Source: Vairimorpha necatrix (taxonomy: Eukaryota). Taken from it: a stretch of DNA of 64,000 nt. A program made the translations under genes and the position numbers. The DNA lies in the NCBI GenBank assembly GCA_036630325.1, contig CP142727.1:1116001-1180000 (forward strand), in the 5' to 3' direction. The notes under the pieces were generated by a model, which had not been told where the DNA came from, searched no databases, and saw only the letters and a program-made list of their open reading frames with translations. This document shows, in pieces, positions 25,783 to 64,000 of this stretch. Positions within the stretch are counted from its first letter, which is position 1; each line of letters opens with the position of its first letter.

Positions 25783-26344
25783 TCTTTTTTATATGTACTT
25801 CAATGTTAAATTTATAATATTTCAAAATGTTATTTATTAAGATTTTTTTAGATCTAATTATATCTTTGCTTTTTATTTAATCAAAATAAGTACCAATGTA
25901 ATAACATGTTTCGCCAACTTTACCGAAAAAGTCAACATATCAAAATTTTAATTTCATTGATAAAGTTTATTAAAAATGATTGTAGATTTTATGATTGTAA
26001 ACATTTAAAATTCTATAATATAAAAAAAAATTATTTATATATTCTTATTAATGTTTTTTTCGCAAGAGTTAACATTTAGATTGCCTCCTTCTAGTCAAAA
26101 TTTTTATTGTATTTCTTTTTAAGTCAAATCTTTGCTATAATTTCAAAAGGAAAAAACATGTCATATAAATCGATTGAAATATTTTGGAAATGCTGTCAAA
26201 TATTTTGACATTCTCTAATCACAAAAAAATTTTAAGTATTTTAATCATTTTAACAGTTTGAATGTCCAAAATTAACTTTGTTTGTTTACAATTATATTTA
26301 AATGCTAGTGATGTTTTCTACTATAAATTTTAATAATTCATTAA

Positions 26345-26348
26345 CCCC
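26345..26348 (+). promoter_or_regulatory. CCC-like start-proximal motif (example; also before ATGs at 7680, 15856, 19584, 43755, 48114, 53575)
   Basis: AT-rich tract then CCCC-ATG; established microsporidian transcription/translation start signature. Confidence 0.75.
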
Positions 26349-31354: not shown

Positions 31355-34300
31355 GTACCATTAATTCTTACATTAATATATAGTAGTAAATCATACATAA
31401 TATTGGTTTAGTAAATTTTATAATATTAAAAATAGTTAGTACATATTGTGAGATAAAATAATTAAATATATCATGTTACAAGCATTTATTTAAGAATGAT
31501 GTTTACTATTAATTATGTATTAATGATCATTTATCTATTTAAATATTCGTTTATAATTTTTTTAACAATTATTAGAACTATAATAAGTAAAAAATTAAAC
31601 ATAGTAGCTTTGTATGCGGCTACATAAATATTATTAAGCAAATTCTAATACATGGAAAATACCATAATTGGCATATAAATATAAATGTGTTGCTAAATCA
31701 GTATTATAAAATTTAGAGTTTTTATATTATTTTGATACATAGTCATTACATTAATTTACATAATATTTACAAAAAAATATATTTAATTTTCGGGTACGCT
31801 TAACAATAAAAACATTGTTATGAAACACGGAGACAATACACTGATAGTACTACTATTTATTCAAATAAAAATTTCACACACACCACAAGTGGCTTTTAGT
31901 AATATTAGAAAGAAAATAATTAAAGATAGATATTTAAAAATTGTATGCCTAGTAATAAACCAATGGGAACAAAATCATAAAATAAAAAGTAAGATCACTA
32001 TTAATCATACTAAGTGACAAGTCACAAAAATAATTTTCACAAATAATTTATTTGTTCATACCTTAACGGCATTTTTAAATCATTAATGATGCAGTAATAA
32101 TTTGCAGATTAGTTAAGTAATAACATATTTTATTTGCTTAAACTTTTTATATATCTTATACATAAAAATGATTCACTGAAGATGACGAAAAAGATAAAAA
32201 TTTTTACATTTTTAACTTTTGCAAAAATTGAAGGAAATAGGAAAGACTCATTTTGTTATAAAATTAATTATCTTCTACATGAAATAATCATCTATAAATC
32301 TGTAATCAAAACAATGAAAAGTTCCTAAAGTTTTATTATCGATCTCCAATGCAGACTTTAAATTTATGGTATTTAGAAAATTTCTACCGCCAGCGTTTTG
32401 TTATTTTCCTTTTACTCCTCCATTTATTGTTTTAAAATATTTTACTATCTTAAGAATTCCACTGAAACAAACACATTGTTGGATAGAATTTAAGTATTTG
32501 ACAGTTGTATACATATTCTATATATTACGTTTAACTTTATCTGACTCAGATAATTTATTAAATTCGAAATTTCTAAAGTAGTTAAATTAATAATTGACAA
32601 ATTAAAAAAGAAATTATGTAGAAATATTTGAACATTAATTTCAAAAATTTCACTCTTGCATTCTGTATTAAAATATGGTTAAATTTTTGTTTCTTCCTCA
32701 ACATTTTGTCTTTATTTTTTCAAAGAATTAATATGGAAAAAATGAAATGAAATAATTAATTTATATCATAAAAAATCGATTTCTTATGATTAAACACTCA
32801 AAAACTATAACCTCCCCCCCCAACGATTTCAAGTACAGATTTATTCAAAAGATGCAACAAAAAAAATTATAATCTATTTAGAGAATGACTGACTCTAAAA
32901 TAACCCAGGTTTTAACATCTTAGTTCAATATATTTCGTTGATTTTAAAAAATAGTTGCCTATTATATTAATTTGACGTGAAAAACTCATAATAGATAGAT
33001 TTTTAAAATCAGTAGGAATATCTGAAATGTTTTAAAATAATAGCATTTTTATAATATCTGAAAGTCTATAGAAGATTAAGAAGTATAAACCTTACGAAAA
33101 ATTAGATCCTAATACATACAACAATAATGAAAATAAAAAAAATATATAGGTATAGGTACATGACAAAATTAAAGCTTTTAATACGGTAAAGCCTATATAA
33201 ATAAAGAAAAAAGAGCAGAATTGGTTTCCAAAGAAATTACAACTTGAAAAAATATTAAAAATGAGCTTTAAGAGCTTAAAGAATGCGCATCGGCCATTCA
33301 AAAAGATGATTTTATTCTCTGTGATCTGGATATGATAATTAAATTGCATAAACAAGTCTTCCCTTGCCTATGCTTATACGAGCTTGCTTTATGCGCAATG
33401 AGATCTAAAATACATCTGTCTAGTATATTTTTTGAAGCTTTTAATTGGTAAACTAAAGGCCAGAACTTGTTCGAAAATATGTAAAGCATCTTTTTATTAA
33501 CATTATCATTTGTTATATTCAGTAATAATATTAAACCCCAATAGTGTTAAGCACTCATAATATTTATTAAAGAAAAGTACAAAAATATAAAATTGGTGAA
33601 ATTTGCTATGATATAACGATCGGATATAATTAATATAGATCTTTAGTGACTTATAAAAATTTGAATCTTTGTTTGGTAGATACAAATCGAATTATATATT
33701 CTGCGGAAATTAAAGAATGGATCTTGACAACATAAATGGCAATCAGAAGGAACAGTTAAAGAACTGCCTGTTTTCCATACTCTAGTGTGTATAAAAGAAT
33801 GTTAAATATTCTACATAAGATTCAATGCGTATTAAAAAAAAAAATAAGAAATGACTAATAAGTGCATATATTTTTTTTCCACTGATGTACTTGTATGGAA
33901 TATAACGAACGCAAAGTATTAAAAGATAAAGAGCTATTACATTTATTTCTCTAATATGTATAACTATAATAAAACTTTCAATATCAGATTTGGCAGAGAA
34001 GCAGACATCTCGTATTCCTTCTATTCCTGAAAACCCGATTTTTATTTAAATAAAAAATAAGTTTAGAATGATATAAAGGTAAGACATTTTCATAAAATAA
34101 TCAATATATTGAAAAGGCATTGACTATGTAAACGAAATTTTCTATTGACTTTTGTGCTGCAACCTCTTTACAACGTCGCCACATCACTTGCGGTGCATTT
34201 TTTTGTCTGCATTGGTCACCAGTCCCTCACAACAATATTTCAACGTGTTAGAAGATCTTATTAAAAGCCATCATGAGACCTGTCTGCTCTACCTCGTCTA

Positions 34301-40900: not shown

Positions 40901-42040
40901 AATATTAAAATAGCTGCAAGAATCTGTGATTGTTTAGCATCAGTTTTCTTATTTATTTCTCTTCCGACTTAAAGTGTCTAAGCAATTTTTCTAAAAAATC
41001 CAAACAGAGCAAGACGAGTCGATTAATGATTTAAATAAAATTAATACATTTGCTAATATTTTTCATTTTGGTATTCTTTATGATTATAAAACTCTTTTAT
41101 CATAAGTTTTTGAGGTATGTAATTATTTATACAAAAATGCTACGGGGTTATGGATAGTTTTAGGTTTTGGTATAAGTATTGAGTACTACTAGTTAAAGTA
41201 CATTATGTTCTTTATTTCAGCGTATTTTTCTTCAGTGATAATATTATTACGATGTAAATATAATGCTAATTCTTTCGGCTACAAGATTTAAATCTTTCAT
41301 ATAATACTAAACTAGTATATAAAGATAATTAGAATAAAAATATATATTTAGGTCAAAAAATGTACAATCTTTTAACATATTTCTAAAAATAGCTTTTATA
41401 CCCCTTTTATATATATTATGTAAAAAATGTATCATCCTGGTGTATATATTAAGAGACCCATAATTAGATATATTGTTTGTTTTGGGATATTAATAATGAG
41501 GTTACGTTATCATAATCGTTATTTCAGTATCCAAAATGAAGCCTTTCTTGAGCTACACATATACTTAAAAAAAACGTGTAAGGTGTTTGCCCTTAAATCG
41601 ACTCCGTTGTAGTGTCAATAGAAAAAATAAGGTAAGTAAATCTTCATAACGTTGGCTTTTTGGAAGGCAAAGCGCGTGTAGAATTAGTTGATTTAAATTC
41701 TACAGAAAGAGCAAAAAAAAATACTATTGTGAAAATTTAATCTTAATAAACAGTATTTAGTATGTAAACACTGTAATATTAAGTTTTAGAGCAAAATATA
41801 ATAATACTATACAGATATTTATAATATTTTATATGCTTAAATTTTTTTTCATAGATGTATATATTTCTTGCAATTTTTTAATAAGTAATTGCGAAATACA
41901 TGTTATATTCTACTCGCTTTTTTTTTGAAAAAATATAGGATGAAAGGATACTTACAGCCTCCGCATTTGATGGAGTACGATTATTTCGAACTCATAAAAT
42001 GAATTGCAAAAAAGAATATGCGGGAGGAGAAAACAATTAT

Positions 42041-42675
42041 TGTCACCGTTCGGAGCGGACGCCAGGGAAAATGCTTATTTGAGAAGGGTAAACAATTAAA
42101 AAAAAAATTCCCCGTTCGGAGCGGACGCCAGGGAAAATGCTTAGTTGAAAAGGGTAAAAAATTAAAAAAAAATACCCGTTCGGAGCGGACGCAAGGGAAA
42201 ATGCTTACTTGAGAAGGGTAAAAAATTTAAAAAAAATTGGTGTTTATTTGTAATTTGTATTTAAAATTTCTTTCATTTTAAGGGCATGAAAATAAAATTG
42301 AATAACAATGAAAGACAAGAAGTTTTTGTCTTTTTACAGACTGGTATTGTACTAGACATAATACAATTTAATAAAGTAAAATTATGCAAAGAAGTGATAA
42401 TGATATTATAATAGAAGAAATAAGTACTAGAGATCTAAGGTTGCTTGGTAATGAATAAAGTACTAAAAATTTTGTTTATTTTATTATTCTCTTTTTTTCA
42501 ATATTCCCTCCCATTATTATAAAAAAATAGCAAAAATTTACCCCTCAAAAAATCGAGACAAAATTTTAATTATCATTTAAGACGAACATTTATTTGCTCT
42601 TATTTTTTGGTTCGATCCTCACTGAAGAGATTTTTTTTAATTTTTTACCCCTGGCGTCCGCTCCGAACTGTGACA
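42041..42675 (+). mobile_element. Non-autonomous TIR element with TGT...ACA ends (Ginger2/Tdd-like), copy 1
   Basis: 27-bp TIR TGTCACCGTTCGGAGCGGACGCCAGGG (1 mismatch); 5-bp TSD ATTAT; three ~65-bp subterminal repeats; homologous to 57040-57832 in opposite orientation. Confidence 0.85.
42046..42235 (+). repeat. Three subterminal tandem repeats (~64-66 bp)
   Basis: CCGTTCGGAGCGGACGC(C/A)AGGGAAAATGCTTA.TTGA.AAGGGTAAA starting at 42046, 42112 and 42176. Confidence 0.95.
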
Positions 42676-43754
42676 ATTATTAAGCATTTAAGTATTATAA
42701 ATAACGAATGAATCTATAGTAAGATAGAAAAATAATTTTCAATTAACTTATATATTTTTTTTAAATTTTTATGCTTTAGCTTTCCTTCTGATTTTTTAGA
42801 GCTGGTCCAAAACGCCCCTCTCAAAGGGTATTCACCTTTTTTTAGAATCCTCAAAATGAGATGTAAAAAAGGAGGAGCAAGCACTAGCACTCAAATATTT
42901 GTATCTTTATATCATATAAAACAAAATAAATATAATTTGAATATAAAAATAATTTTTAAAAAATATTGTTTCTCTTAAATTTAATATTTCTAATTAGTTC
43001 AACATATTTTATCTACAATTTTTTTATTGTAAATCTGTCTAGATTGTACATATGTATTTCATTTTTTCTATATCTAAAGAGTGCTTCATTTTTAATTGTT
43101 ATTTATTATAAAATGAGATTTTTTCATAAATCTACTTTAATAAATAACCAACAATTAAAAAATCAGAAGGATAAAAAATGTTCAGACTTAAAGTTATTAT
43201 GATACTTAAAAAACCCAAATTTTCGTATCTAAATACATATTTTTTGTTCTTTATACTATTCTTAGTACAAGTAATTTTTGTCTCCTACTTGCTCCTTCTT
43301 TTTTCGCACTTCATTTTTTAGGTTCGAAAAAAAATCGTAGCGCCTCAAATGCGGGGGCTGTAAGTTCTGTTTAGCCAATATTGAATATAGTAAATATTTT
43401 TGACAGCTTTCAATTTTTTAAAAAACTTTCATGTTGTAGCAATATTGTTATTTTTATTAAAAATAATTTTCAAATTTATTAACAACATTCTCTATGTTCA
43501 TTGAGAGGTAAATATATTTTTCAACAAATTGTAAGTTGTTTGTTTTTAAAATTAATCAGCCATAAAATGTCATATCTATAGATTATAAGAAAGGTCGATA
43601 GGTGTCAAATATTGACGTTTGAAAATAATTAAATGTAAGTCTACATAACCTATTTAATTTGTTCATATTTTTAAAATATTATTTTTTAACCTAGAAAATG
43701 TTTTTGTTACGTAATATATTTTCATAATAAATTTTTACTATTTTTTTATCCCAC

Positions 43755-45989
43755 ATGAATATCTTTCATTTGATCATACCAGCTTATATTTCCTGCACCA
43801 ACCAAATGTTTTTTTACAAAATTACAGATGATCTAATAAATAAAGTAGAAAATAGAGAATATGGAATTTTTAATTCTTTTAAAATTCCCGTTATCGTGTA
43901 TTTAGTTCATCATGAATCGAAACAGATTATAAATGTTAATATAAACGAAAAGGCAAGTCAAGTTAATAATCAAATAAAAAAAAGATGTACGGTTTTTTAT
44001 GATAAAAAATCTATAAATGAAATAACTAATGAAATTGAAAACCTTATAGTAAGCAGTTTAAAATTTAAAAATTCTTATTCTATAAATATAACATACGACA
44101 AATTAGATATAAAGCGAAGTTCGATCTTTTATGAAGTCATGAAAAACATTATAAACGTAAACAAGGAAAAAAAAATTAATAAAAAATGTAAGGATATTTT
44201 TTATGATAATATTTGTGAAAAAAATAGTTACTTTATTGATGTAATCTATACAATAAAGCAGGAAAATATTAATCTCAAAGACAACATGAGCATTTTTAAG
44301 GTTCATGTTTTTTACAATATAGAACCTAGTACATGGTATATAAGACTTCCAATTGAAATAGAGGGTATCTATTATCTGTTTGAATTAGATATAGAGGAGT
44401 TTGAGCTTGAAGCATTTTATTCATTAAGTAATATAAACATTAAGTTTAAGAATTCATATGAAGAGCAAAATTTTATGAATTTGCTTATATTTTTAAAAGA
44501 AATCGATGATAAATTGCTTTGCTCACAAATTCAACAATCAAAAGTCAGCTGTAAAACCAATAAATACATGATTAAGAATTCTTCTTTTAAAATTCAAATA
44601 GAAAGTGACAAAATAAACTTTAGGCAGAGATCCGATAATTACGAATATAATCTGTTAGAGAATGCATCATTTAGTATAAACCGGAATTGTTACTTTGAAT
44701 TACAGCGATTCGTAGAGCAATTTAATATTATGAATATAAATCAAATTTATGAAGGTATTGAGGTCTTATTTAGATCGTTTTGTAGAAATAAAAAAATAGA
44801 ATTTCTTGTACATAGGATTCTATATAGAAAAAAATCTGCTTTAAATTTATTATTTGGACATCTGTTTTTATCTATGTATGTAATATATCGCCACGAACTA
44901 GATATAATAATAGGTCATAAAGAAGACACCGAAAATGAGATAGAAGATATTAAAAATCGTTTGACTGATTTTATTTTATCTAAAATTTCATTTGATAATA
45001 ATCTTATATTTTATCTAATTAAAATATGTTTACTCAAAGAGGCAGAGAAATATATTAACGAAAATGAAGTGAATGATGATTTATTATTTAACACACTAAA
45101 AGAAATTGGCAACCTAGTCAGATTGAAAAAAAGTAATAGTAATGAGATTATGCAATTTAGTTGCGATAAGGGGGGCATAGATATATTTGCAATAATTACT
45201 GATGTGTTGAATATACATACCGAAAATCTTTATAATTATAAAATATGGGGTTTAGAACATATATGTAAATTAGCTTCATTATTTGAAGTTAGATACAAAC
45301 TTTCTACAGCTGAATATTCAAAGGATTTTGAAAAATATGAAATTATGGATTCAATGGAGCTTTATAAATTTGATGTAGAGTTTAACATTGGTATTCTACT
45401 TAATAAAATATGCAGAAACCATAAAGAAGATAAAAGTTACAAAAACGTAATAAGTACAAAGGAAATAGAGACTAATAAAATAAAAAAAAAATTAGAAACA
45501 ATTGGTTTAATCAAGTGTCTAAATTTATTGATTTCAGAAGCCTTAGACCAAGAAATTGAAAATATATGGGAAAAAGAAACAAGAGTTGAGTTTGAAGATG
45601 ATTTAATTACAAAAGGAATAGAAAAGATTGATCAAATTTTTGCTAGACATTTTATGGTAAAGAGCAATACAATAATTAATTATTTTAAAAAAATATTTAT
45701 AAAGAATATAGGCGAAGATACTATACTTGAGTACAAAAATGAATTAGAGAACAATTTTAGATTAGACATATCAATAAATATAGAAAAGAATGCAATAAAT
45801 AAGGCAAAAAAAAATCTGAAAAAGATTTTAAAAATTTTAGCAGAAAACAACTTTGAAAATATGACAAAAGAGAAAGAAAAATACGGAAAAGATCTGAAAT
45901 CTATTTTAAAATTTTTGAACAAAGAAGATCCAATGGAAGTACTAAATAATAATCCCGAATATAAAACGATGATAATTTACATGAATTAG
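43755..45989 (+). CDS. Hypothetical 744-aa protein, paralog 3, signal-peptide-like N-terminus
   Basis: Intact ORF MNIFHLIIPAYISCTN, closely collinear with 26349-28616; CCC 2 nt before the ATG. Confidence 0.93.
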   Translation: MNIFHLIIPAYISCTNQMFFYKITDDLINKVENREYGIFNSFKIPVIVYLVHHESKQIINVNINEKASQVNNQIKKRCTVFYDKKSINEITNEIENLIVSSLKFKNSYSINITYDKLDIKRSSIFYEVMKNIINVNKEKKINKKCKDIFYDNICEKNSYFIDVIYTIKQENINLKDNMSIFKVHVFYNIEPSTWYIRLPIEIEGIYYLFELDIEEFELEAFYSLSNINIKFKNSYEEQNFMNLLIFLKEIDDKLLCSQIQQSKVSCKTNKYMIKNSSFKIQIESDKINFRQRSDNYEYNLLENASFSINRNCYFELQRFVEQFNIMNINQIYEGIEVLFRSFCRNKKIEFLVHRILYRKKSALNLLFGHLFLSMYVIYRHELDIIIGHKEDTENEIEDIKNRLTDFILSKISFDNNLIFYLIKICLLKEAEKYINENEVNDDLLFNTLKEIGNLVRLKKSNSNEIMQFSCDKGGIDIFAIITDVLNIHTENLYNYKIWGLEHICKLASLFEVRYKLSTAEYSKDFEKYEIMDSMELYKFDVEFNIGILLNKICRNHKEDKSYKNVISTKEIETNKIKKKLETIGLIKCLNLLISEALDQEIENIWEKETRVEFEDDLITKGIEKIDQIFARHFMVKSNTIINYFKKIFIKNIGEDTILEYKNELENNFRLDISINIEKNAINKAKKNLKKILKILAENNFENMTKEKEKYGKDLKSILKFLNKEDPMEVLNNNPEYKTMIIYMN

Positions 45990-48113
45990 TAGAAACTTGC
46001 CTTTAAAAATATAATAATGATGGAAAAACAATTAAAGCTCTTTTCATTATTACCATTATATAACTCTAGTGTCTTTAAAAAGTATTTTTAATGTATAAAA
46101 ATTGATTTGTTCTATAAATGAAATGATTTTAATTTTCAAATATGATTAAATAAGAACTTTTATATGTTTTTGATGGTAAAAAACGCCCAGGCATCATAAT
46201 GCACAATAAAATTTATGCATAATCGTTATATTGATTTTTGTGTTACTTCTAATTCATGTGGTTTTTTTTAATTTGCTCAAATTTAAAACCTTTTCATGTG
46301 TTTATATTGTTTTTACTTTGTCAAGCAGTTCCTGCCAGTGTTAAAAAAAATCCTTTCAGTTTTTACAATTTTTTTAAATTGTTAAATACATATTATCTAA
46401 TTATTTCAGCATGTATTTATCTTTAATCATTAAAATAACAATCAAAGTACAAAAATAATTAATTCAGCACATATTGCCAATGCTTCTTAACTAAACACTT
46501 AATGAAGAAACATTTTAAAATCGTCTATTGTTTATTTATCCTTTATTCTGGCTCTTTATAATTACATTTTACAAAATTTTACCTTTGCGGCTGTTCATAG
46601 ACATCTTATCATATCCATTACTAATAACAAGGCATTTCGAAACTAAAAATAGTTCGCCAAGCTTAAATTTGTTTGTTTTTTAATTTAATTGGTTTTTTGT
46701 TGTTGCTCGTCATTAAAAAAAATCATAGTCTTCTTTATATTCTTTAAAATTATTGTGTGGTTAATAACAAAAAAATTATTACACTAAATAATCATTTGCC
46801 GTAACAAAAATAATTCCGCATAATTATCTCTTTTTTAAATTATAAGAGGAAAAATGATTCCTTTATAACTCCCTTTTTATTAATCAGAGAATAAAAATGT
46901 CAAAATCGAATTAAAAATGTTTTACAATTCCTTAATTGTATTTTAGGTAAAATTTTAATAAATGTACACTTTACATTTGTATGTAAAACTACTTTTTTTG
47001 CAATTTTCATTTTTTTTTGCTTATAAATTCTTCTTTCTAAAATGTAATTGCCAAAAAAAACAAACCAAGTTCCCCTTTTTAAAACGAAAAAAAGGTGCTA
47101 GTTTTTGTTATACAAGGATTATTTTTTTTTATAAAATTAAATAATTTACGACCTTGAAAATTTTATAAATTAAACAAACTCTTAGCCGTCATACGTAAAC
47201 AAGTTTTTGGGATAACAAATTTATTTTTGTTTATTTTGCTTTTAATCATTTAAGTTTATGGCATTTATATCAAAATTAATACTATAGTATCATCTTGTAA
47301 TTAATTTACAGTTATAAACCTATATTATAAAAAATGTAAGTATTGATTTCATGAGAATTGTGTAAGAAAAATTATAATGGTTATGTACATTTAGATAAAT
47401 AGATAGAAAAAATACCATACGTTAAAATTTTACACGCGTTTTTTAAGAAATTATAATATGATAGATGATTTATTAATCGATTTAATTTTTTATATTCGTT
47501 AAAATTTTTAACCTTTGTTAATAATGACATTAACCTAAAATTACTAACAAATATAGGTCACAATTTATTAATGAATCACGCTAAGCCTAATAAGCGTTTA
47601 CTTCATAAAATTTTCTGTACAACAATATTCTGTTAAAAATTAATTTTAGATTACTAATACCTCGAACTATCTTTTTCATAAAATTTGTATGATATTGTTA
47701 AATTTAAACTGATATACAAAAATAGTTGTGTAAAATTTTGTTGGAATAGAAAATTTGGGTTGCGTCATATAATATTTTAATAAATGACTTGTCAACCGTC
47801 TTAAAAGGACTACATGAGAAATGTACAACTGACTAACACCTTACACAATTTCTAATAACGCATTGTCATAACACAACACGGAAACTAAAAAACACTGCAA
47901 CCTTCTGATCAAGATAAAATGATCAAATAATGGTATGATTTAGCAATAGATTTCGATTTGTTTCTTATAACACGTCACATTTTAATAATAAAAAACTGAT
48001 CACTAAATAGAAAGTGTAGCACACAAAATTTTTATACGTATAGACGAAGCATGGTACTACGAAATATTTTTATACTCATTAATATAGTAATTTTTTATTT
48101 ATTTATCCCTCAT

Positions 48114-49079
48114 ATGACAGTTTTAGAAATTTCTTCGAAATTAATGTCTGAAATATCTTTAATTTGTAAAGATTATAATATTACTAAAGTAAAAGATATT
48201 CTTAACTATAATTTAAGAGGTGGGAAACTTACAAGATACCAGATTCTATCACATGTAGCTAATAATGGAAATGAAAAAGTAACAGAATTTGATAAAGATA
48301 TTGTAGGGTTTATTATTGAGGCTTTTCATGCTTCATTTTTAATGTCAGATGATATTGTTGATAATTCGACAATGAGAAGAGATAAACCATGTTTTTATTT
48401 TAGGAGAAAAATGATGACTTTAAGGGATTCAAGATTTTTAATAAGTTTAATTTACCAACTGATAAAACGGTTGAATTTAAAAATCAAGAAAGTGATTGAA
48501 AAATGTTTTTTTGAAACTTGTTTGGGGCAGACAATTGACACCAAAAACAAAGTAAGAGATGAGTGCTCATTTAGCTTATATAAAAGAATATGTGAGCTAA
48601 AAACCTCTTCTTATACAGTTTATATGCCAATGGCGTGTGGATATATTTTAGGCGGCCGAAAATGTCCAGATTATTTAGAAGAATTTACTAATATAATAGG
48701 TCTTATCTATCAAATGAATGACGATTACTTAAACTTCTTTCCAGAAAAGACCAAGAAGTCATTCACTGATTTGGAGGAGTTTAAATTAACTTACTTCACT
48801 AGTAAACTTGGCGATTGTTTTAAAGAAGTACAAGAATTGGCGGCAATGGAAAAAAATGAAGAAGAATTGGATGTCAAGGAGTTTAATAAAGATTTAGACA
48901 TGTTCTTTAATAAGAAAGCAGTGCCAGCGTCTATTGAAAAATGGATTAGATCATATTTTGATAAATATTTCATCCACAAAGAAGAGCTGGTCATGAAGTC
49001 AAGAGACATGATCCATAAAGAAGACGAGAAAGATTTGTTCTTTTTATATGATATACTTAAAAAATATGAATTAAAATAA
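48114..49079 (+). CDS. ERG20: Farnesyl diphosphate synthase / trans-prenyltransferase (possibly FPP/GGPP bifunctional)
   Basis: RGGK..R, FARM DDIVD...RR, GQ..D, KT..YT, second motif Q..DDYLN, TDLEE.KLT. Start placed at 48114 (CCC at 48107-48109) rather than 48051. Confidence 0.93.
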   Translation: MTVLEISSKLMSEISLICKDYNITKVKDILNYNLRGGKLTRYQILSHVANNGNEKVTEFDKDIVGFIIEAFHASFLMSDDIVDNSTMRRDKPCFYFRRKMMTLRDSRFLISLIYQLIKRLNLKIKKVIEKCFFETCLGQTIDTKNKVRDECSFSLYKRICELKTSSYTVYMPMACGYILGGRKCPDYLEEFTNIIGLIYQMNDDYLNFFPEKTKKSFTDLEEFKLTYFTSKLGDCFKEVQELAAMEKNEEELDVKEFNKDLDMFFNKKAVPASIEKWIRSYFDKYFIHKEELVMKSRDMIHKEDEKDLFFLYDILKKYELK

Positions 49080-51344: not shown

Positions 51345-53575
51345 TTATTTCAATGTATATTTTTTTATTATATGCATTAACTCGTCATGTAATTCGATTG
51401 CCGAGTTTGCATATAATACTTTTATTATGGTTTCTTCCTTTAACACTGTTCTAATATTTTTAAATATTTTTTCTGTCCTTTTATTATCAATATTTTCTGT
51501 TGATATTTCATTTTCGAACGACTTAATAAATACTATGAATAATTCTTTAACGGATATTTTTTTGATTCTATCTTCTATATTAATTTTTATATCTTGGAAA
51601 AAACTTTCTATAAATTTTTTTTTGTATTCCAATATTATATTTATATCTAATGACTCCGTATTAGTTATTCCATTAAAAATTTTATCAATTTTTGTTATTC
51701 CAACATTTTTAAAATTATTGTCGAGATTATCAATCATATCTGCATCAAATAAATTTTCAATAAAACTATATATAGATTGGGTTTTCATTTTTTTTAATTC
51801 TTCCATTTCTGGTAATTTTTCTATTATTTTGTTTATTTTAATTATTTCATCTTCCCCTTTTCTTCTTTCTTTCTCAAATTTATAGTCTTCTGCTGTATTT
51901 TCTAATAATTTCTTTCTTAGATTTTTAGTATTTCTTTCTACCGCATATTCATCAAGTTTTAAATCTGTAATTATATCTTTTTTAACGTATGCTTCAATTT
52001 TTGTTGGATAATTCCCATTCACAAATTTAGAACTGCTTAGTCCTGTGAATAATGATGAAATTTTACTGATGTTTTTAATAATTTCTTTCTTAAATCGTAC
52101 AATTTCATCAATATGAATGCTTTTTACTTCTTTTAATATATTAGTTATTTTGATTTTGTCTTTATTTATATACGTATAGGTTTGATCTTTATTTTTTTCA
52201 GATTCTATTATGTTGGAAATAATCAATAAAATTCTAAAAAGTGGATCGTCACCTGCGCCATTTTCATTTATAAGCATTTCAACTTCCAAAAGTAAACAAA
52301 TTGCTAGTAAATAAGATTCTGAGACATTTAAACTATTTAAATAAATTGATAATTTTTTCATAATTTGTTTACAAAACACTTCTATATTACTTTCACTATT
52401 TACTTCCCGCCCTGTTATGAGATCTAATTCATGTTTTTTTATTATTTTTATATATAGCAGAATATGACAAAATAAGGTGTTTAAGGCCGATTTGGAATTA
52501 TTTAATATTCGTAATATGAGGAAATCAACCTTTTCATAGTCAATTAGTAAGTTATGTAGAAAATATATACATTTGTAATTTTTTTCATACACCATTTCAC
52601 TGATACTTTGGAGGATTATTTGTAATTCTGTAAAACATTGTTTTTCGATGTAATTCCTGCCATCATTCTGATATGAATCGAGTTTTAAATAGTATAAATA
52701 TTCAATAGAACCTATAAAAAAGCTTATAAGATCTGGTTTTATTTCAATTACAAAATTAGATGGATATTTTATCTCAATTTTGCTTGGAGTAACTTCAAAT
52801 CGATTCAACATATTTGTTGCAACAGGAAAATTACTGTCGGCAATTTGATACAAATAAAACAATGTTTTTATTATTTCTTGGTCCACCTTACGTATATTTT
52901 CAGTGTTTAGTCGCACAAAAGATAGTAGTTCGTCAATTTCTATTTCGAAAAAATTACAAACATTTTCTATCTCAATACTGAATCTAAAAAAATATATGTT
53001 GCCAATTTTTTTGGAATTTATAGGGTACAGGGGAATACACGGGACATTTACGTGTTCAATGTTAATATTTTGTATATCAATAAGCATTTCATATAAAGGA
53101 CAATCATTTTCGCAAATGTTATCATAAAAAATTTCCCACCCATTCTTTTTTATTCTTCTTTCTTTATTTACTCTTTTATTTTTTCAATGACATCTTTAAA
53201 TAGAGAATTGCTTCTGATTTGATTTTTATTATATAACAATATAGTAAAATCGTTGTTTGGAAAATTTAATTTTCTTATAATGTTGTCTTCAAGCGTTTTA
53301 CTAATATCCTCAAGAGATTTATCAGCATAATTAATTTCAAAACTACCATAATTTTTCTTTGCGCATCCAGTTGAACTAATATCTTCTAAAGTACATTCTA
53401 TAGTTCCATGTGCGCTATACAAAAAAAGGCTTACCATAGTATATTTTTTTGCTTTATCGAATACTAAATAATCTCTAGTTTGTATTTTATTAAATATAAT
53501 ATCTTTTATATTATTATAAACATGTTGATTTTCTTTAATGAATAGTATAGAAGATAATAAGTTTAATGCATTCAT
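51345..53575 (-). pseudogene. Paralog 4 of the ~745-aa family, split by a single 1-bp frameshift (~53172)
   Basis: ORFs 53168-53575 and 51345-53087 join when one A is added to an A-run, restoring KIKRVNKERRIKKNGWEIFYDNICE and ~743 aa; could be a sequencing indel. Confidence 0.85.
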
Positions 53576-54099
53576 ATAGGGTAAAATTGATTTAAAAAAT
53601 ATATATGATAAAATAATTAGATACTTATAATTTGACTTATTAGTTTCTTAAAATGATATTTGGGTATAAAATTGCTGTTTTTTTATTTTAAATATTAAGC
53701 GAAATATAAAGCATAGTCGTTTTTTTAGTATCACATTTAAAAAATAATGAAAAACTCATAGATACAAAATAGCAGAATTTTAATGTATACAAGACGATTT
53801 CCATTTCAGTTTTATTTATTATTTTTTTTTGATGCATGTCAAAAATATTTTGCAACCTGTCAACAGCTTTCCTAAAGTTATAAATTTTTTCATCTATGTA
53901 AAATTGGTCTAGAACTATAAATGAAAACAATTAAATTTTTTTGAATCTTTATAAATAAGTTAAAATTTATTGTGAATAGACTTTCGAATAGATAAATATC
54001 GTAGTTTAAGTAATTTTGTACTTTAAGCAGCATTTTGAGGTAATTACATATTTATAATCCATATTAAAAAAAACTAAAAAACTTTATTGTTATTAAAGA

Positions 54100-54715: not shown

Positions 54716-57039
54716 TATATTTCATATTAAAAAAAATATCTGCTGTAAAATCATATAATAATTATCAAAAATCTTTCTTATAATCAACCTCTTTGGATAA
54801 AAAAAAGATGTTCTAAATTCATCAAATACAAAGAGGGAGGAAATGATCTAATAATATATATATGGTCTAAAAGTAAGATAAAATATGAAATTGGCAAAAA
54901 ATTTGAAGCAACACACATAAAGCACATGTCAATTAAAACATAAAATTTTGTCATTTATAGGCGTTTGAATACTAATCGAATAAAAATTTTAATGTAATAA
55001 ACAAATATACTTCAATCTTAGAAAAATTTACTTTTAAGAAGTTATGTTAAATAACCACAGAAACTTGAGGCAACATATGACAATGGAAGCATTGAAGAAA
55101 TTGATAAGATAAATAACAATAAATATTTTTTCAAAATTTGTGTACGTCATGATTAGAAAAACTTATACTAACATTATTAATTTTATGCAATGATTTTAAA
55201 GAACACGGTTATCATATTGTCAATCTTCTTCGATCACATTGATATGAACTCTATTTTTTAGCAGAAATTTAGAACACAATTTTATCTAAATTTTATTTAA
55301 AAAACAGACTGTCATATCATAGTCTAACGTTTATAGAGTATGAGAATAGTTCAAGACCAACATAAAGTAAATATTTTAGCGGTCATTAAGTTATGATACT
55401 AAATAGAATCATAGACTTATCACCATGTGCAATATATATCTACTATATGTGTTCATATAAATTAAATCAGGTTGTACTAATTTTATTTTTTGTGCTTTAT
55501 TAATATTTTAGTAGAATCCAAATCTTATTTTTTTTTTCGTATTAAATATTAAAAGTTGTTATAAGTGGCAGATTTAGAATCAAGTTTAATTTATAATGAT
55601 ATATTTTTGCAGTCTGTAATTATAACACATAAGACTATAACATTAAGCTAATGAGCATATTATTTTTTGTACATTCCTAATATATAAATCAAGTTCCTGT
55701 TTTGTAGTATTACAAATTTTTATTGATTAATGCAATGTTTATTGTCATGCGGTAGACATACGCTGACCATCAGAATTACCATTCATAAAGAATTCTGCAT
55801 TTGTTTGGTCCAAATGATATATTTGACACTTTCAGAAGTCATGCTATTTTGCTACAAATATGTGTTCTACACATATTTGTTCAAGTTTTGTTCTATTTTT
55901 ATTTCCCTCCAAAATGCTACATTTTGGAGGGAGACGTTTACGAAACGCATTTAAGCAACTTGCCCTAAGAAGGGTACAATGAGTAATAAACAGTTAATTA
56001 ATAAACCTTTATCTTCTAAAAGCCCACTATTTCTTGTCTCGAGACCAACGCGGCAACATTTATAATAAAACAAGACAAATCTAAAGTTTTTAGTTTATTA
56101 TGTTAATTTTCTTTCTTGAGTTTAGATTTTTGTAACACAGCTTGTCCCGGTATCGCTCATGGGATTCAGCTCTTTACGGACTATAGTTTTTGTGAATAAA
56201 TTTTCGTTTTCTAAGTTTTCAGCTTCAGTCTCATTCAACGACATTCCTAACAAGACAAATCTTAATTTATAAATTTGTATAAAAATCGATTATAATGATT
56301 AAAAAAAAGTAGAAAAGAAAGACCCCATTTAAATGAGCAATAAACTTTGGAAGGTTTTAGAATAGAAAAAACGTTGTTTCATAAAAAATTAATTTTTAGA
56401 TTTAATTAATGCCAATTGCATATACGATAGCATACCAATATATTTGTAGATTAAATAACGTAATGAAACCAAAGACTTCTAATTTGTTTTTAATGCTGTT
56501 TTTTGCTTATAACTCAGTAGAAGATAACTTATTTTATTGTCTGTCACGTTATCAGTAAAAGTGTTATAGTAAATAGTCTCTTAGGGTCATAATTTTTTTA
56601 ACGTGTATCATGAGATGAAGTAGAAAATCACACAATCTAAAACACACTAGCAATTCTATGTTTTTAAACATAAAAGAACATTAAGATATTACATTATTGT
56701 TATTTTGCTTTTAATACATCATTGTAATTCTTAAAATAAATTTTATACTATAATTTATGAAATTGGGCCATTAAGGACTAACTAAAGAACATTAATAAAT
56801 CTTGTTTTATCATATTACATATTATATTTGTTGTAACATGTGAAACAAGTACTGTCTTGTTACAAACGCCAGACAGTTTTAGTCATCTTAAACCAGTTAT
56901 GTTCTATTAACTTAACGTATGTTTCACTGGAAACTAGTTAAGAAAACTGATTCTAATAATTATGCAATTTAATATAGACATATCTTCGAAACTCAACAAT
57001 ATTAATTTTTTTACTGTTATCGCAAATTTTCAAATAAAT

Positions 57040-57832
57040 TGTCACCGTTCAGACCGGACGCCCGTTCGGACTGGACGCCGGGGGTAAAAAATTAAAAAAA
57101 AATCTCTTCAGTCAGGGGCGAACCAGAAAATAAGAACAAATAAATGTTCGTCTTTAAGACAGCTCAAATTTTGTCTCGATTTTTTGAGGGGTAAATTTTT
57201 GTTTTTTTTTTATAATAATGGGAGGGAATAATGAAAAAAAGGAGAAAAATAAAATAAACAAAATTTTTAGTACTTTATTCATTACCAAGCAACCTTAGAT
57301 CTCTAGTACTTATTTCTTCTATTATAATGCCATTATTATCTTCTTTGCATAATTTTACTTTATTAAATTGAATTATGTCTGTTAAAATATAGACTTCAGC
57401 ATCTAAATGTTCATAAAGAGAATGTCTTCGGGTATTTACGTTGTTGTCCAAATAAGGTCTTATAAGGACTCTATCTCCTATTTTATGTTCAAAAAATCCT
57501 ATTTCTCATTATTAGTTTTTTTTTCAATACACAAAAATAAAAAAAGAGTAACATTTTATAAAACATAATTATAATTCCCATATTCGCAACAGGAACGCAT
57601 AAACTAGTTTAACCTAAAAATTACAAATAAATAACAGCGATTTTTTTGTATTATTTTTTTAACCATATAAAGTAAACATTTTCCCCTGCGTCCGGTCCGA
57701 ACGGATATTTTTTACTCTTCTTAAGTATGCATTTCCCCTGGCGTCCAGTCCGAACGGATATTTTTTACCCTTCTTAAGTAAGCATTTTCCCCGGCGTCCA
57801 GTCCGAGCGGGCGTCCAATCCGAACGGTGACA
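57040..57832 (-). mobile_element. Non-autonomous TIR element with TGT...ACA ends (Ginger2/Tdd-like), copy 2
   Basis: ~44-bp TIRs TGTCACCGTTC.GA..GGACGCCCG.TCGGACTGGACGCCGGGG; 5-bp TSD TAAAT (57035-57039; 57833-57837); 53-bp subterminal repeats; coding remnant 57275-57490. Confidence 0.87.
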
Positions 57833-58132
57833 TAAATTATAAGATATCGACGTACAAAGCAAAAATTAGTATTATATATTTATGAATATCCCATATTTTG
57901 TCCTGTATGTTACTATCACTTCAAGGTTTTTTAATTACAAGTAAGTATCTATTACAATTATATTTTTGTTATAAAATATATGTACACTCTATAACTATGT
58001 ATAAGGAAATTCCATGCATTATTTTTTTATTATATTCTTTTATATTAAGTCTTTGCGTCGAATTATATAGATACTGATTTTTCTTTAAAATAAGGAATAT
58101 ATTATGTAGGGTTTAGAACCCTTAATAAATAA

Positions 58133-60777
58133 ATGGTTAACATGGCGAACACAAGGATGAACAGGGAAACAAGAGAGTCCCGTAGTCAAGAGGCTAGAAC
58201 ATTAGAGAAAGAGGCAATTAGGATAGATAAGAGACTAAAGTTAATATTGAAAGTTGAGAAAGTTGAGTGGAAAGATGTTATGGATTTGGCATCTGCGAAC
58301 TTGCAGGATTATATTTTTGAAAATTTTTGTGACGGAAGGAGCAGTTGGGAGGAAATTTATAAAGGCTTACAAAAAGGAGCAGAATTTGAGAGAGAGTCAG
58401 AAGAAAGACAAGAAATGATTAAAGAGATTATGGATAAAGTGTTGAAAGAGTTTAGGGAAGAAAGAAAAGAAAATCTTAGGATGTATAGGAAAAGAAGAGA
58501 AATCAGAGAAACTACAAAATGTTTTATATGTAAGAAAGTAGGGCATTACGCTAGAGAATGTCATGAAAGTGTAGCTGGTAGGGAAAAATATAAAATTAAA
58601 AAGGAACAAGTTTTACAGAAAGAACCAATTATCAACAATGAATGGAAAAGATGTAAAACAGTAAATAAGTTAGAAAATTTAATTGAAAAGTATCCGGAAG
58701 TTTTTAAAGAATCAGAAGAAAAGATAAAATATCTCACAGGAGAGAAGTGTCCAATAAATACTAAGCAAGGTGAAAAGGTTGTGAAAAGAGGGCAGAATGT
58801 GCCATACTACCTTAGGGTGAAATTTGAGGAGTACTTGAATAAGTTGGAAAATAGAGGGGTTATAAGACGTTCCAAAAGTGAGTGGAGGAGTCCAATAAGA
58901 GCACTTGAAAAACCAAATGGGGACGTAAGATTGGTAAGCAATTTGATGGCGTTAAACGATTTGGTTGACAAGGACCCGTACTCATTACCGTTAATTAAGG
59001 ATATTATGAGAGCCACACAGGGGTCAAAAGTATTTACGGTTATCGACTTAAAAGAAGGGTTTTATCATATTGAGATTGAGGAGCACCATAAGCACAAAAC
59101 AGCATTTGAAGTGAATGGTCGAGTATACGAATGGAATAGTATGGTTATGGGGTTTAAGAATTCGCCTCATATAATGCAGAGAGTAATGAACAGAGTTTTA
59201 GATGAATTCAGAAGTAAAGGCGTGGAAGTATATATGGATGATATAGTTATTCATGGTAAAGACGTAAGAGTGCATGACGAGTTACTAGAGAGGGTAATTA
59301 AAAAGTTTAAAGAGTGTGGGTTGAGAATAAACCAAACAAAGATACAATACAAAAAAGATGAGGTGATGTTGCTGGGAGTAACAATTAATGGGGAGGTCAT
59401 GGGACCGAATGAGATTAAAAAGCAGGAGACATTGGAATATAGAAAACCTGAGAATGTTAGAGAGTTAAGAAGATTTTTAGGACTAACTGGTTGGTTTAGA
59501 GACTTTATTCCCAACTATGCGTATAGAACAGTAAGGCTTACTGAGGCTTTAAAGAAAGATGTTAAGTGGAATTGGACGGAGGATATGGAAAGAGCTTTTG
59601 AGGATATTAAGCAAGGCTTGAGAGATATGAAAAAGTTGAAGATTCCGGACGGAAAAAAGCTATTTAGAGTAAGAACTGATGCGTGTGATACGGGGATCGG
59701 AGCAATTCTATTACAAGAAAATAAAGAGGGTGAGTGGATTCCGATACAATGGGCATCGAAAATGTTGACTCCTACCGAGCGAAGATATACGATAAGTGAG
59801 AAGGAGATGTTGGCGGTGTTTTTTGGAATAAAGAAGTTTGAAAGTGATTTGAGAGGAAGGAAATTTCATTTGATGACGGATCATAAAGCATTAGCAGAGA
59901 TCAGAAATAAGCCATACTTCAATAATAACAGAATAAACAGATGGGTAGAACAGATACAAGAGTTTGACTTTACAATAGAGTATGTGAAAGGGGAGTTGAT
60001 GACAGATGCAGATGCGTTAAGCAGGCAGTATGATCAGGTAGAAGTTTCGGATGAACAAAAAGAAAAGGACAACAAGAGAAAAGAAGTGATCGAAAAACAA
60101 ATTTTGGGAAAAAGGCAGAAACATATTAAAGAAAAGGACGGTAAACAGTATTGGGAATTTTCCACAGGTGAGGTGAAAGAGATATTGAGCCTAGATAGTA
60201 GAGAACATGAAATAACAAGAGTACATGAGGAGTTAAACCATAGAGGTGTCAAAGGCACTTATTATAACATTAAACAAAGATGGTATTGGCCTGGTATGAA
60301 AGATCATATTAATAAGGTAATTAAGAATTGTGAAATATGTGGGATTAACAATAGGAAAAACACAGGAGGATGTGATTTCGTAGTAACTAGAAAGAAATTG
60401 GAGAAAGTGGCGTTGGATTTAATGGACATAGGTGGAGAGAATAGGTATGTGTTACTGGGTATTGATTACTTTACTAGAAGGTTGTGGGGTTCGAATTTGA
60501 GATGTAAAGAGAGTAGTGAAGTTATAGAGGTATTACAAAAGTGGATAAGGGAAGATGGATTTCCAGAGGAATATGTGACAGACAACGGAAAAGAGTTTGT
60601 AAGTAATAGATTTAAAGAATGGTGTAGTATTAATGATATTAAACATAGGAAAGTGGGCTTAGAAGCTCATAGGAGTAATGGTAGAATCGAGAGATGCATC
60701 AGAACTATAAGAGAGACATTGATAAAGCAAAATGATGGGAATATTTCTGAAAAGATAGAAAGAGCAATCAAAGGATA
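58133..60777 (+). CDS. pol: Gag(CCHC)-RT-RNaseH-integrase polyprotein, intact up to the nested insertion
   Basis: CFICKKVGHYAREC knuckle, YMDD, TDAC, H..LNH...CEIC, ALDL...TDNG...IER; no D[ST]G protease motif between knuckle and RT. Confidence 0.95.
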
Positions 60778-60826
60778 TATAAGTGCTTAACATAATTGGG
60801 GTTTAATATTATTACTGATTATAACA
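60778..60826 (-). repeat. 3' LTR of element #3 (49 bp)
   Basis: TGTTATAATCAGTAATAATATTAAACCCCAATTATGTTAAGCACTTATA on the minus strand, preceded by the PPT. Confidence 0.93.
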
Positions 60827-60836
60827 TCCCCCCTCC
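60827..60836 (-). other. Polypurine tract GGAGGGGGGA of element #3
   Basis: Directly before the TG of the 3' LTR; identical to the PPT of element #1 (2689-2698). Confidence 0.9.
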
Positions 60837-60842
60837 AGACGG

Positions 60843-63800
60843 TTAGTCTCCTTCAACATACTTTAAATCCCCTACACCCTTAAGATCATAATGCCTTTTT
60901 TTCACCAACCTTCCATTCTCTAATCTCACTATATATGAATCCCCTGGACATAGCTCAATCACTCTTCCCATGTCTAAAAATCGACCCTTACTATACTTAC
61001 TACATCCCTTTAAATTCTCATTCTTGGCAACCCTAACTATCTGGTTCCTTTTGAACTTTTCTCTAAACCAACTTTTGAACTGTTGCGCATACTTTCCCTC
61101 TGGACTATTCTCCATACTAACATTTCCTGTATTATCGGTTAAAGCTTCTACTGGCGTGCACTTAATACCAGCATGAAAACTTAAATTATATTTCTCAATA
61201 GCTTCATAAACCTTGTTCTCGAATTTCTCTTTTTGGCTCTTTAAAATACTATCTCTTACAGTTCTAATAATGCTTTCTACTCTTCCATTACTTCTGTGCG
61301 ACTCAACGCTGACCTTTCTATGACTAATATCCAAATTTCTACATAGCTCGGTAACTTTTTCGTTGCAAAACTCTTTACCATTATCCGTAATGATTTCCTC
61401 TGGTTTTCTACCCTGTTTACACAAATCCTTGATAAATTCGGCAATTCCAGATGCGTGCTTGCTCTTCAATACTCTGCCCCATAATCTCCTTGTAAAGTAA
61501 TCAACTGCCAAAACAATAAACGCTTTCTCATCCCTAAATTCTATTAAATCTAAGCCAACCTTCTCTAAATATCTTGTCGTGTTCACTAAATCAGTACCGC
61601 CACTCGTTTTTCTATTAAAAATCTGACAAGTCTCGCAATTCTTAAGGACCTTTTCGATCTGATCCTTAATTCCTGGCCAATAATACTGTTTCCTCAACTC
61701 ATAATATACCGTTGTTCTGCTTCTGTGGCTCAAATTTACATGACAATCCATTATTAATCTCTCTCTGTCTTGTTCCAAAGGCATCTCGCCTTCTCTACCA
61801 CTATCAAATACCCAGTATTCTTTACCTTCTACAATTTTTACATGCTTATTTCTTTTCCCTTCTTTTTGTCTATCACGGCGTGTTTCATTTCTCTTTTTCT
61901 TTGCATCTTTTTCTTTTGTATATACCCTACTTAGCGCATCGGCTACGACCATATTTTCTGGAGTTCTATATTCTATCACGAAATCAAATTCCTGAATCTT
62001 CTCGACCCATCTATTAATTCTAGCATTCTTAAAGTCGGGCTTGTTTCTTATTTCGCCCAACGCTTTATGATCAGTTTCTATTCTAAATTTCCTACCTCTT
62101 AATTCATATTCAAACTTTTTAACGCCCCAAAAAACTGCGTACATTTCTTTTTCTGATATACCATAATTAACTTCCGTAACGGTAAACTTCTTAGACGCCC
62201 ACTGTACTGGCACCCATTCTCCTTGATTATTTTTCTGTAACAGTACTGCGCCCATGCCTACATTACTAGCGTCAGTCCTCAACAAAAATTCTTTATCATA
62301 GTCTGCTATTTGCAGCTTTCCTAGGCCTTTCAATACTTCTTTTAAATTATTAAACTCGTTTTTCATATCATCCGTCCACTTCCAATTATCATTCTTCCCT
62401 TTTAAACTATCTGTCAACCTAACTGTCAATCCAGCGTAATTCTTAATAAAATCTCTGAACCAACCCGTCATTCCTAAAAATCTTCTTACATCTGACACGC
62501 ATGTTGGTATCGGAAACTCTAGGGCTTCATTTTTCTTTATCTCTGACGGTATTATATCTTCTCCATTTAAAGTGACTCCCAATAATTTAACTTCCCGTTG
62601 ACAAAACTGAACTTTATTTGCATTCAGCTTCAAATTGTTTTCCTTCAGTCTATTTAATACCCTTTTCACTAATTGCTCGTGTTCTCCTATCGTTCGGCTG
62701 TACAACACAATATCGTCCATATACACCTCTACTCCTTTGCCTTTCATATCTCTAAAAATCCTATCCATAATTCTCTGCAATATCTGCGGGCTATTCTTAT
62801 ATCCCATAACCATAGAGTTCCATTCATAAACCTTGCCATTAAAATCAAACGCCGTCTTATGTTTATCCTCCTCCTCTATCTCAATACTATAGAAGGCCTC
62901 TTTTAAGTCGAAAACCGTCATATATTTTGCACCTTGTGTAGCTCTTACAACATCTCTTATGTTAGACAATCTATACTCGTCCTTTTGTACAATATCGTTC
63001 AATGCCATCAAATTACTAACCAGTCTTATCTCACCATTTGGCTTTCTGATTGACCTTATAGGATTCTCCAACTTGAATTTGACTCTCTTATCACTTTCCT
63101 TTTTAATAAATCTTCTAGATGTAGCTCTGTATCTTTTATCAACGCCTGCGGAACCATTTGTCCCTTTTTAAATACCTTCATACCCGCTTCAGTATTAATT
63201 TTACATTTTTCCAGTTTACAATATTTTATCTCCTCTTTTCCTAACTTAAAAACCTCTCCAAAACTCTTAGCATACTTATCTAAATTTAATCTGATTCTCT
63301 TACTCTCCTCTTTAACGGCATATTCTTTTTGATTTTTCTCAAATTTGACTCTAAGTCCTCTTTTTGATCTTCTAAAATCTCGCTCCTGACTTGACTCTGA
63401 TTCACTACCTACTTCCATTTTGCAACTGTTATCCTTGTTATTCTTTTTATAATAATTATCTCTATTAATCTTCAGTCTGCATTCAAACACCCTATGCCCT
63501 TGTCTATCACAATAGAAGCATCACGGTACTCTCGATTTTTGTCTTGGTTGTTCTCTACTAATTTCTTCATTTATAGTCCTAGAAATAATTTTTCTCATTT
63601 CCTCATATATCTTTTCTTTTTCCTCTACTTCCTTAATCCTTAACAATAGCTTCTTCCTTATTCCTTCAATATTTTCTTCCTTTTTGATATTTCTCACAAT
63701 AAAATCTTTTAAATCCATCGAAGCCAACTTGAACAGCTCACTCTTCCATTTCACTCTATCTACATCTCTCAAATCCAATTCATACAATATACGCTCTAAC

Positions 63801-63886
63801 TCCTGTAACATCTTTCTGACCACTTGGCCACAGTCCTCTCTTGTGAACTCTTCTTTAGGTATCGCCCCCATATAAGTGCTTAACAT
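60843..63886 (-). pseudogene. pol: gag-pol of element #3 with one in-frame TGA (63521-63523) and one 1-bp frameshift (~63065)
   Basis: Gag...RVP*CFYCDRQGHRVFEC in one frame; SSWR-NPIRS restored by one extra A; RT YMDD, RNase H TDAS and integrase HHCC/DDE intact. Confidence 0.9.
63861..63870 (-). other. Primer-binding site TGGGGGC..., tRNA-Pro-like
   Basis: TGG directly follows the 5' LTR; TGGGGGC matches the first 7 nt of the canonical tRNA-Pro PBS (TGGGGGCTC...). Confidence 0.65.
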
Positions 63887-63919
63887 AATTGGGGTTTAAT
63901 ATTATTACTGATTATAACA
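63871..63919 (-). repeat. 5' LTR of element #3 (49 bp)
   Basis: 49/49 identical to 60778-60826. Confidence 0.93.
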
Positions 63920-64000
63920 GGATATAATAATACACTACATACAGCAATAAAATGTACGCCGATGGAAGCGTGGAGAGATCAAACTGCTGAAGTTATAATT
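63920..64000 (+). pseudogene. Continuation of the element #2 integrase after the nested insertion
   Basis: Reads GYNNTLHTAIKCTPMEAWRDQTAEVII, homologous to YNNSYHEGLRCTPFEA (#1) and YNLSFHAGIKCTPVEA (#3). Confidence 0.93.

Follow-up and report, generated by a model that had tools for sequence, protein, structure and literature searches.

A recently multiplied, reduced and probably Ty3/gypsy-derived retrotransposon family with 49-bp LTRs in Vairimorpha necatrix

The DNA analysed here (the window) is a stretch of 64,000 nucleotides from contig CP142727.1 of Vairimorpha necatrix. On its minus strand it holds an LTR retrotransposon of 3,142 nt (63919-60778, about 3.1 kb) whose terminal direct repeats are identical and 49 nt long, as had been predicted from the sequence. 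Its copies in the genome confirmed that the family is real, that it multiplied recently and that the micro-LTR is a family-wide trait. Overall, we regard it as fairly probable that this is a reduced Ty3/gypsy-derived LTR retrotransposon working as an uncleaved polyprotein, the latter part being inferred from its coding content. What had not been predicted is that the protein has no protease, that its Gag is reduced, that the start codon falls within the LTR and that the window copy is broken.

Structure, copies and sister families

The features of the element are collected in Table 1. The original prediction was right about most of its architecture: the duplication GGATA is present on both flanks, the primer-binding site adjoins the 5’ LTR with no spacer, the purine tract adjoins the 3’ LTR, and the stretch from first ATG to stop covers 3,044 of 3,142 nt (96.9%, predicted as about 97%), with the stop codon at the predicted distance of 6 nt from the purine tract. 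The element had also been called complete, which holds for its structure and fails for its coding capacity. The window copy is a dead family member, carrying one in-frame stop and one frameshift.

Searching the V. necatrix genome (15.0 Mb, 12 contigs) with the repeat and the element, as had been proposed, gave at least 17 full-length copies at 99-100% identity and 3 more at 93-95%; as 40 of 321 candidates were scored, these copy counts are lower bounds. The LTRs measure 49 bp in all 17 copies, save one 5’ LTR of 48 bp, and the two LTRs of a copy are identical in 14 of them. Longer LTRs in other copies, which would have made the window element a deletion derivative, were thus not found among the 17. 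Perfect duplications flank 15 of the 17 copies as printed, and 16 if a one-base deletion is allowed in L017. The frame is single and 1,014 residues long in seven copies, falls ten codons short of this in one, and is interrupted in nine; some of these nine interruptions may be sequencing errors.

The copies also fixed the ends of the LTR. The prediction had left the boundary ambiguous by about 2 nt, and this ambiguity disappeared: copies with informative duplications set the LTR at exactly 49 bp, TG...TA, because the duplication does not begin with T in L004, L008, L011 and L013 and does not end with A in L001, L002, L003, L005, L009, L015 and L016. A shifted boundary that would restore TG...CA is ruled out by the same duplications. 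The unusual TG...TA termini were therefore seen correctly from the single copy, and they recur in 17/17 young copies, except for one 3’ LTR starting with TT.

The 49-mer itself had 42 genomic matches at ≤3 mismatches and 0 for the reversed control. Three of these matches lie outside the listed elements and have no adjoining primer site or purine tract. Their flanks show a perfect 5-bp duplication in two cases and agreement in four of five bases in the third; perfect duplications in this setting are as expected of solo LTRs, whose presence had been anticipated. The junctions, which were to be backed by reads, were matched by an empty site: in a contig from a public run, 60771 is followed directly by 63919, and the 3,147 nt missing in between equal the element plus one duplication. 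This contig represents other copies of the host-element family, and run X1 is possibly the source sample, so that the junction arithmetic is confirmed from a sample that is not independent.

The host element just mentioned belongs to a sister family, starts at 58105 and was hit by the window element within its integrase. In intact relatives of this host element the stop codon lies within the 3’ LTR, and the frame consequently overlaps both LTRs. Its LTR carries a small inverted repeat around a CCC motif.

Table 1. Coordinates of the retrotransposon, its host element and an isolated LTR in the window
Feature	Position	Strand	Remarks
Host-element 5’ LTR, 38 bp, TG...CA	58105..58142	+	identical 3’ LTR just past window (L001 5012-5049), duplication TATTA
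Host-element primer-binding site	58143..58155	+	13-nt match to tRNA-Arg(TCG)
Host-element polyprotein frame, cut by the insertion	58133..60777	+	also without protease; element resumes 63920-64000
Target-site duplication GGATA, left	60773..60777	+	
3’ LTR, 49 bp	60778..60826	-	same as 5’ LTR
Polypurine tract, 10 nt	60827..60836	-	adjoins 3’ LTR; similar in sister families
Stop codon	60843..60845	-	6 nt ahead of purine tract
C-terminal integrase domain, conserved, beta-rich	60876..61040	-	no Pfam name
Integrase zinc-binding and DDE core	61317..61772	-	Pfam Integrase_H2C2 E 6e-14, rve E 4e-10
RNase H	61986..62378	-	Pfam RT_RNaseH E 2e-32
Reverse transcriptase core, YMDD	62568..63050	-	Pfam RVT_1 E 1e-36
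One-base frameshift of window copy	63060..63070	-	near 63065, start of RT
Linker at the usual protease place	63299..63478	-	charged, unconserved, predicted disordered; ends in conserved Lys-Arg
Single CCHC zinc knuckle	63479..63520	-	nucleocapsid-like
In-frame stop of window copy	63521..63523	-	just ahead of zinc knuckle
Reduced Gag, domain of four helices, the last of them long	63551..63832	-	residues 19-112; AlphaFold2 pLDDT 94-98 per block, residues 21-110
Primer-binding site, 13 nt	63858..63870	-	complementary to tRNA-Pro(AGG) 3’ end including CCA; also read as codons
First ATG of polyprotein	63884..63886	-	LTR position 34; LTR-internal ATG in all six families
CCCC motif past A/T-rich run	63891..63894	-	LTR positions 26-29; microsporidian core-promoter type, putative function
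5’ LTR, 49 bp, TG...TA	63871..63919	-	boundary set by 16/17 copies with perfect 5-bp duplications
Target-site duplication GGATA, right	63920..63924	+	
Isolated older family LTR	33511..33559	+	92% identical; no adjoining primer site or purine tract; flanks match 3/5

The prediction had further suggested an extreme reductive LTR lineage, and this is supported by the sister families. Twenty further loci were picked from 104 RT matches, and 18 of them have exact terminal repeats of 39-51 nt; of the remaining two, one has a 30-nt repeat cut by an indel and one has no repeat. These loci define five sister families which, trimmed to TG...CA (their termini, unlike the TG...TA family), have LTRs of 48, 49, 49, 49 and 38 bp and are about 3.07-3.22 kb long. 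In each, a single frame of about 1,000-1,040 residues runs from an LTR-internal start through the primer site. All micro-LTR lengths were measured within this one genome (G000). Relatives elsewhere encode 949-1,019 residues, and in four cases the contig is 3,068-3,272 bp long; where a species is named, it is Vairimorpha necatrix or Enteropsectra breve. No LTR pair was seen in three metagenome relatives (L173-L175), of which L173 is cut and L175 decayed. In all six families one extra base per side (A before TG and T past the LTR end; 63870 and 60827 in the window) makes the ends symmetric, a hint that the linear DNA is extended by one base.

Several other features of the window were observed. 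Another compact family, the one in L118-L120, is represented at 1-2540 by a copy that is decayed and frameshifted and is truncated where the window begins. Miniature DNA transposons are suggested by the look of two related elements (42035-42681 and 57038-57832), which are non-coding and combine long inverted ends with tandem subterminal units of 53-66 nt. At 36624-37937, inverted repeats of 46 nt surround a transposase-like frame (36894-37376) that by eye is Merlin-like, and a further inverted-repeat pair of about 83 nt, 0.9 kb apart, lies at 24712-25782. At 5446-7701, 26337-28616, 43731-45989 and 51345-53647 lie host frames that are related to each other, each about 750 residues long and one of them split, and the frame at 48000-49079 is by appearance a polyprenyl diphosphate synthase.

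Domains of the polyprotein

The single frame encodes, in this order, a small helical domain, one CCHC knuckle, a linker, RT, RNase H and integrase. The position of integrase downstream of RT and RNase H is the Ty3/gypsy order, and the top match in a fold search with the RT was the Ty3 RT (4ol8, E 6e-26), almost tied with a caulimoviral RT. Although the element resembles Ty3/gypsy in its workings and gene order, the lack of an aspartic protease between Gag and RT leads us to treat it as a reduced variant instead of a canonical member.

In the case of the protease, none of 25 lineage proteins matched a Pfam protease family at E 0.01; 14 of these proteins are fragments picked from a profile search, several of them too short to reach the RT. 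Retrotransposon proteases are hard to detect by profile, according to the available part of PMC3248453. Here, however, the space for a protease is lacking as well: in 10 of 11 long lineage proteins the RT core begins at residue 259-306 (and at 208 in the eleventh, which has no N-terminus), and the linker between knuckle and RT amounts to about 30-90 unconserved residues, with pLDDT below 50 at residues 148-199.

The protease profile PF13975 had at least 150 matches in the same genome (150 of 260 candidates scored), 146 of them over the cut-off, and by coordinate comparison none of these matches falls inside the 17 family copies. Ten long elements (L163-L172) were chosen around such matches. 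All ten carry the protease and LTRs of 187-300 bp, with a length of about 4.0-4.25 kb and capsid-family hits in five; their RT core starts at residue 476-550, as compared to 259-306 in most micro-LTR proteins. Thus, host-wide LTR shrinkage is ruled out, and micro-LTR and protease loss together mark one lineage. Each of the ten has one open frame of 1,228-1,314 residues, and their LTR pairs are 98-100% alike. Some of the long elements have an unusual Cys/His knuckle and some seemingly have none.

Regarding the enzymes, 11/11 aligned proteins, which are 46-70% identical, have the catalytic residues of RT, RNase H and integrase unchanged, an argument for elements that rely on enzymes of their own. 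The linker, otherwise unconserved, ends just before the RT in a Lys-Arg pair (K196-R197; 63304-63299) that is invariant in 6/6 families, K196 being kept in at least 90% of the 11 aligned proteins. This pair could be a cleavage site or a nuclear signal.

Ahead of the knuckle there are only about 95 residues in four helices, hence room for one capsid lobe. The Gag remnant may correspond to a single capsid lobe at most, a reading that we treat as a lead. Fold searches with this domain gave no significant match: in the Foldseek PDB search the best E was 1.4, with the Arc C-lobe at rank 7 (E 2.1, rmsd 3.2 over 65 columns), the best VIA Z was 6.5, to unrelated helical proteins, and the best E in the viral library was 0.26, to an HIV Gag fragment. 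A PDB sequence search matched mostly via the knuckle, and the ESM Atlas returned knuckle and Gag-like clusters at 0.88-0.93 with low counts of shared features. A capsid origin is possible and compatible with these null results.

Primer site and proposed function of the 49-nt LTR

The primer-binding site has 13 nt of perfect complementarity to a tRNA-Pro(AGG) gene of the same genome (contig C12:839045-839116). tRNA-Pro(TGG) and tRNA-Cys were rejected as primers, as they match over only 7 nt. Among 63 scored tRNA matches, which are part of the candidates, no gene for His, Val or Tyr was named and one locus with a likely intron stayed uncalled.

In Encephalitozoon cuniculi, 5’ UTRs are shorter than 7 nt, start codons are preceded by a CCC motif that lies past A/T-rich DNA, and recognition of AAUAAA or AUUAAA signals is loose (PMC2803860, available part). 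The LTR has the layout of a host gene start: an A/T-rich run, CCC and ATG. The CCC column is invariant in the LTRs of 6/6 families, and CCC lies a short way ahead of ATG in 4/4 host genes that were read. By analogy with these genes, it is quite likely that a bare host promoter lets the LTR be tiny. Transcription would then start a few bases past the CCC motif, near LTR position 30, leaving a U3 of about 30 nt and a minus-strand strong-stop DNA of about 16-20 nt. The predicted RNA 5’ end shows no special structure (folding z 0.27). The single frame of the long elements also starts inside their 5’ LTR, which makes the LTR-internal start a host-wide trait; compact host promoters alone therefore do not explain the micro-LTR.

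For the 3’ end, ATTAAA at LTR positions 20-25 (60807-60802 in the 3’ LTR) is a candidate poly(A) signal, a motif that counts as weak evidence in A/T-rich DNA. The five sister families have AATAAA past the CCC motif, in four of them merely 4 nt from the LTR end. In these four, the transcript probably runs to the LTR end or beyond it, and the whole stretch after the start would be R. The TG...TA family has no AATAAA at that place, and the 3’-end model is weakest there. In general, the RNA would end in or just past the 3’ LTR. It had been predicted that U3, R and U5 fit within 49 nt. Such a fit would follow from the structure, with the reservation that R possibly reaches the LTR end and a separate U5 may be absent.

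Known systems and alternative readings

Among known elements, Ty3 of Saccharomyces cerevisiae (Metaviridae) gave the top RT fold match, almost tied with the caulimoviral RT, and is alike in tRNA priming, purine tract, 5-bp duplication and single CCHC knuckle. Unlike the present family, which has no protease, one frame and a 49-bp LTR, it encodes an aspartic protease, uses a frameshift between gag and pol and has LTRs about 340 bp long. The Ty3 capsid consists of two lobes, i.e. two four-helix domains (PMC6525542, available part), as compared to the one helical domain found here. The long protease-bearing gypsy families share the host and a single frame from the 5’ LTR, and differ in LTR, length and protease. 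TRIM/SMART miniature LTR elements combine very short terminal repeats with a primer site, purine tract and target duplication, and they are non-coding and fully dependent. In the present family, by contrast, 97% of the element is coding, and RT, RNase H and integrase are all intact. Ty1 of S. cerevisiae starts its gag in the LTR and has a coding primer site, and Mag of Bombyx mori has a short LTR of about 77 bp; both encode a protease and a full capsid. The Nbr elements of Nosema bombycis are of the microsporidian single-polyprotein Ty3/gypsy kind. TARE1 of tomato, a Copia-type family with a 194-bp LTR, was likewise amplified with a mutated terminal dinucleotide, changed at the TG end (PMC3701649, available part) where the microsporidian element is changed at the CA end (TA).

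Microsporidian gypsy groups with a single polyprotein have been described (Parisot et al. 2014, PMC4202319), and our family is alike in this and in the order RT-RNase H-integrase. LTRs of 38-49 bp, protease loss and a reduced Gag are not described in the main text of that paper, in which the word ‘protease’ is absent and the available passages give no LTR length; its supplement may list such a consensus. No account of micro-LTR or protease-less microsporidian elements was found in the literature searched, in the parts available, including this main text, PMC3486916, PMC12449221, PMC5012567, PMC7313128, PMC3248453 and PMC13149256.

How, then, could such an element work? With neither a protease nor a frameshift, its protein would stay one uncleaved chain. 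This chain would bind its own RNA via the knuckle, oligomerise via the helical domain, and carry out reverse transcription and integration in cis, and a classical shell with two capsid lobes would probably be lacking. As every Gag remnant bears about 870 residues of linker and enzyme, a classical shell fits poorly. From the coding content, we give the action of the uncleaved protein in cis on its own RNA roughly even chances. Two points stand against the uncleaved model: a helper protease is at hand in the genome, and the invariant Lys-Arg before the RT could be a host-protease site. A further-reaching version is tentative and, in our judgement, has somewhat less than even chances: an old, autonomous lineage without proteolytic maturation or a closed capsid, in which the uncleaved Gag-remnant/RT/RNase H/integrase acts on its own RNA with 38-49-bp LTRs and strong-stop DNA of less than 20 nt, a LINE-like minimal retroviral cycle.

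The main rival is a semi-autonomous hitch-hiker with its own RT and integrase, co-packaged and cut by the Gag and protease of the long families. Possible helpers exist, given at least 146 protease matches over the cut-off and ten long elements whose open frames and near-identical LTR pairs indicate that they are recent; the short Gag, moreover, may fail to close a shell. We nevertheless consider this rather unlikely. All enzymes are intact across six families and relatives outside the genome, a comparison of short and long Gag profiles showed no link (probability 0.3% and 1.2%), and inspection of the alignment by eye found no hydrophobic motif conserved at the junctions. Between RNase H and integrase lies a predicted helix that is charged and unlike a retroviral cleavage site.

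Less probable still is that a host protease frees the enzymes from Gag at the conserved Lys-Arg. The conservation of the pair in all six families fits such a site, but a nuclear localisation signal is an equally good reading, RNase H and integrase have no comparable conserved site between them, and kexin-type proteases, which cut dibasic sites, act in the secretory pathway. Finally, a one-copy deletion derivative or an assembly artefact, to which the broken window copy and the nine interrupted copies might point, is refuted by the copy survey and left with hardly any probability, as LTRs of 38-49 bp recur at separate sites, each with a duplication of its own, in the 17 copies and in five sister families, next to solo LTRs and an exact empty site.

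The uncleaved polyprotein remains the reading that we prefer. LTR retroelements are generally taken to have maturation by a protease, a capsid of two lobes and LTRs hundreds of bases long. A recently multiplied lineage without them is a natural test of which parts the cycle needs, including the minimum length of R and of the integrase attachment site, and of whether RT and integrase can function in one chain. It also bears on annotation. The minimum LTR length of LTRharvest is 100 bp by default, as had been stated (PMC2253517, available part), so micro-LTR elements are missed by default runs, and such finders undercount these elements in microsporidian genomes.
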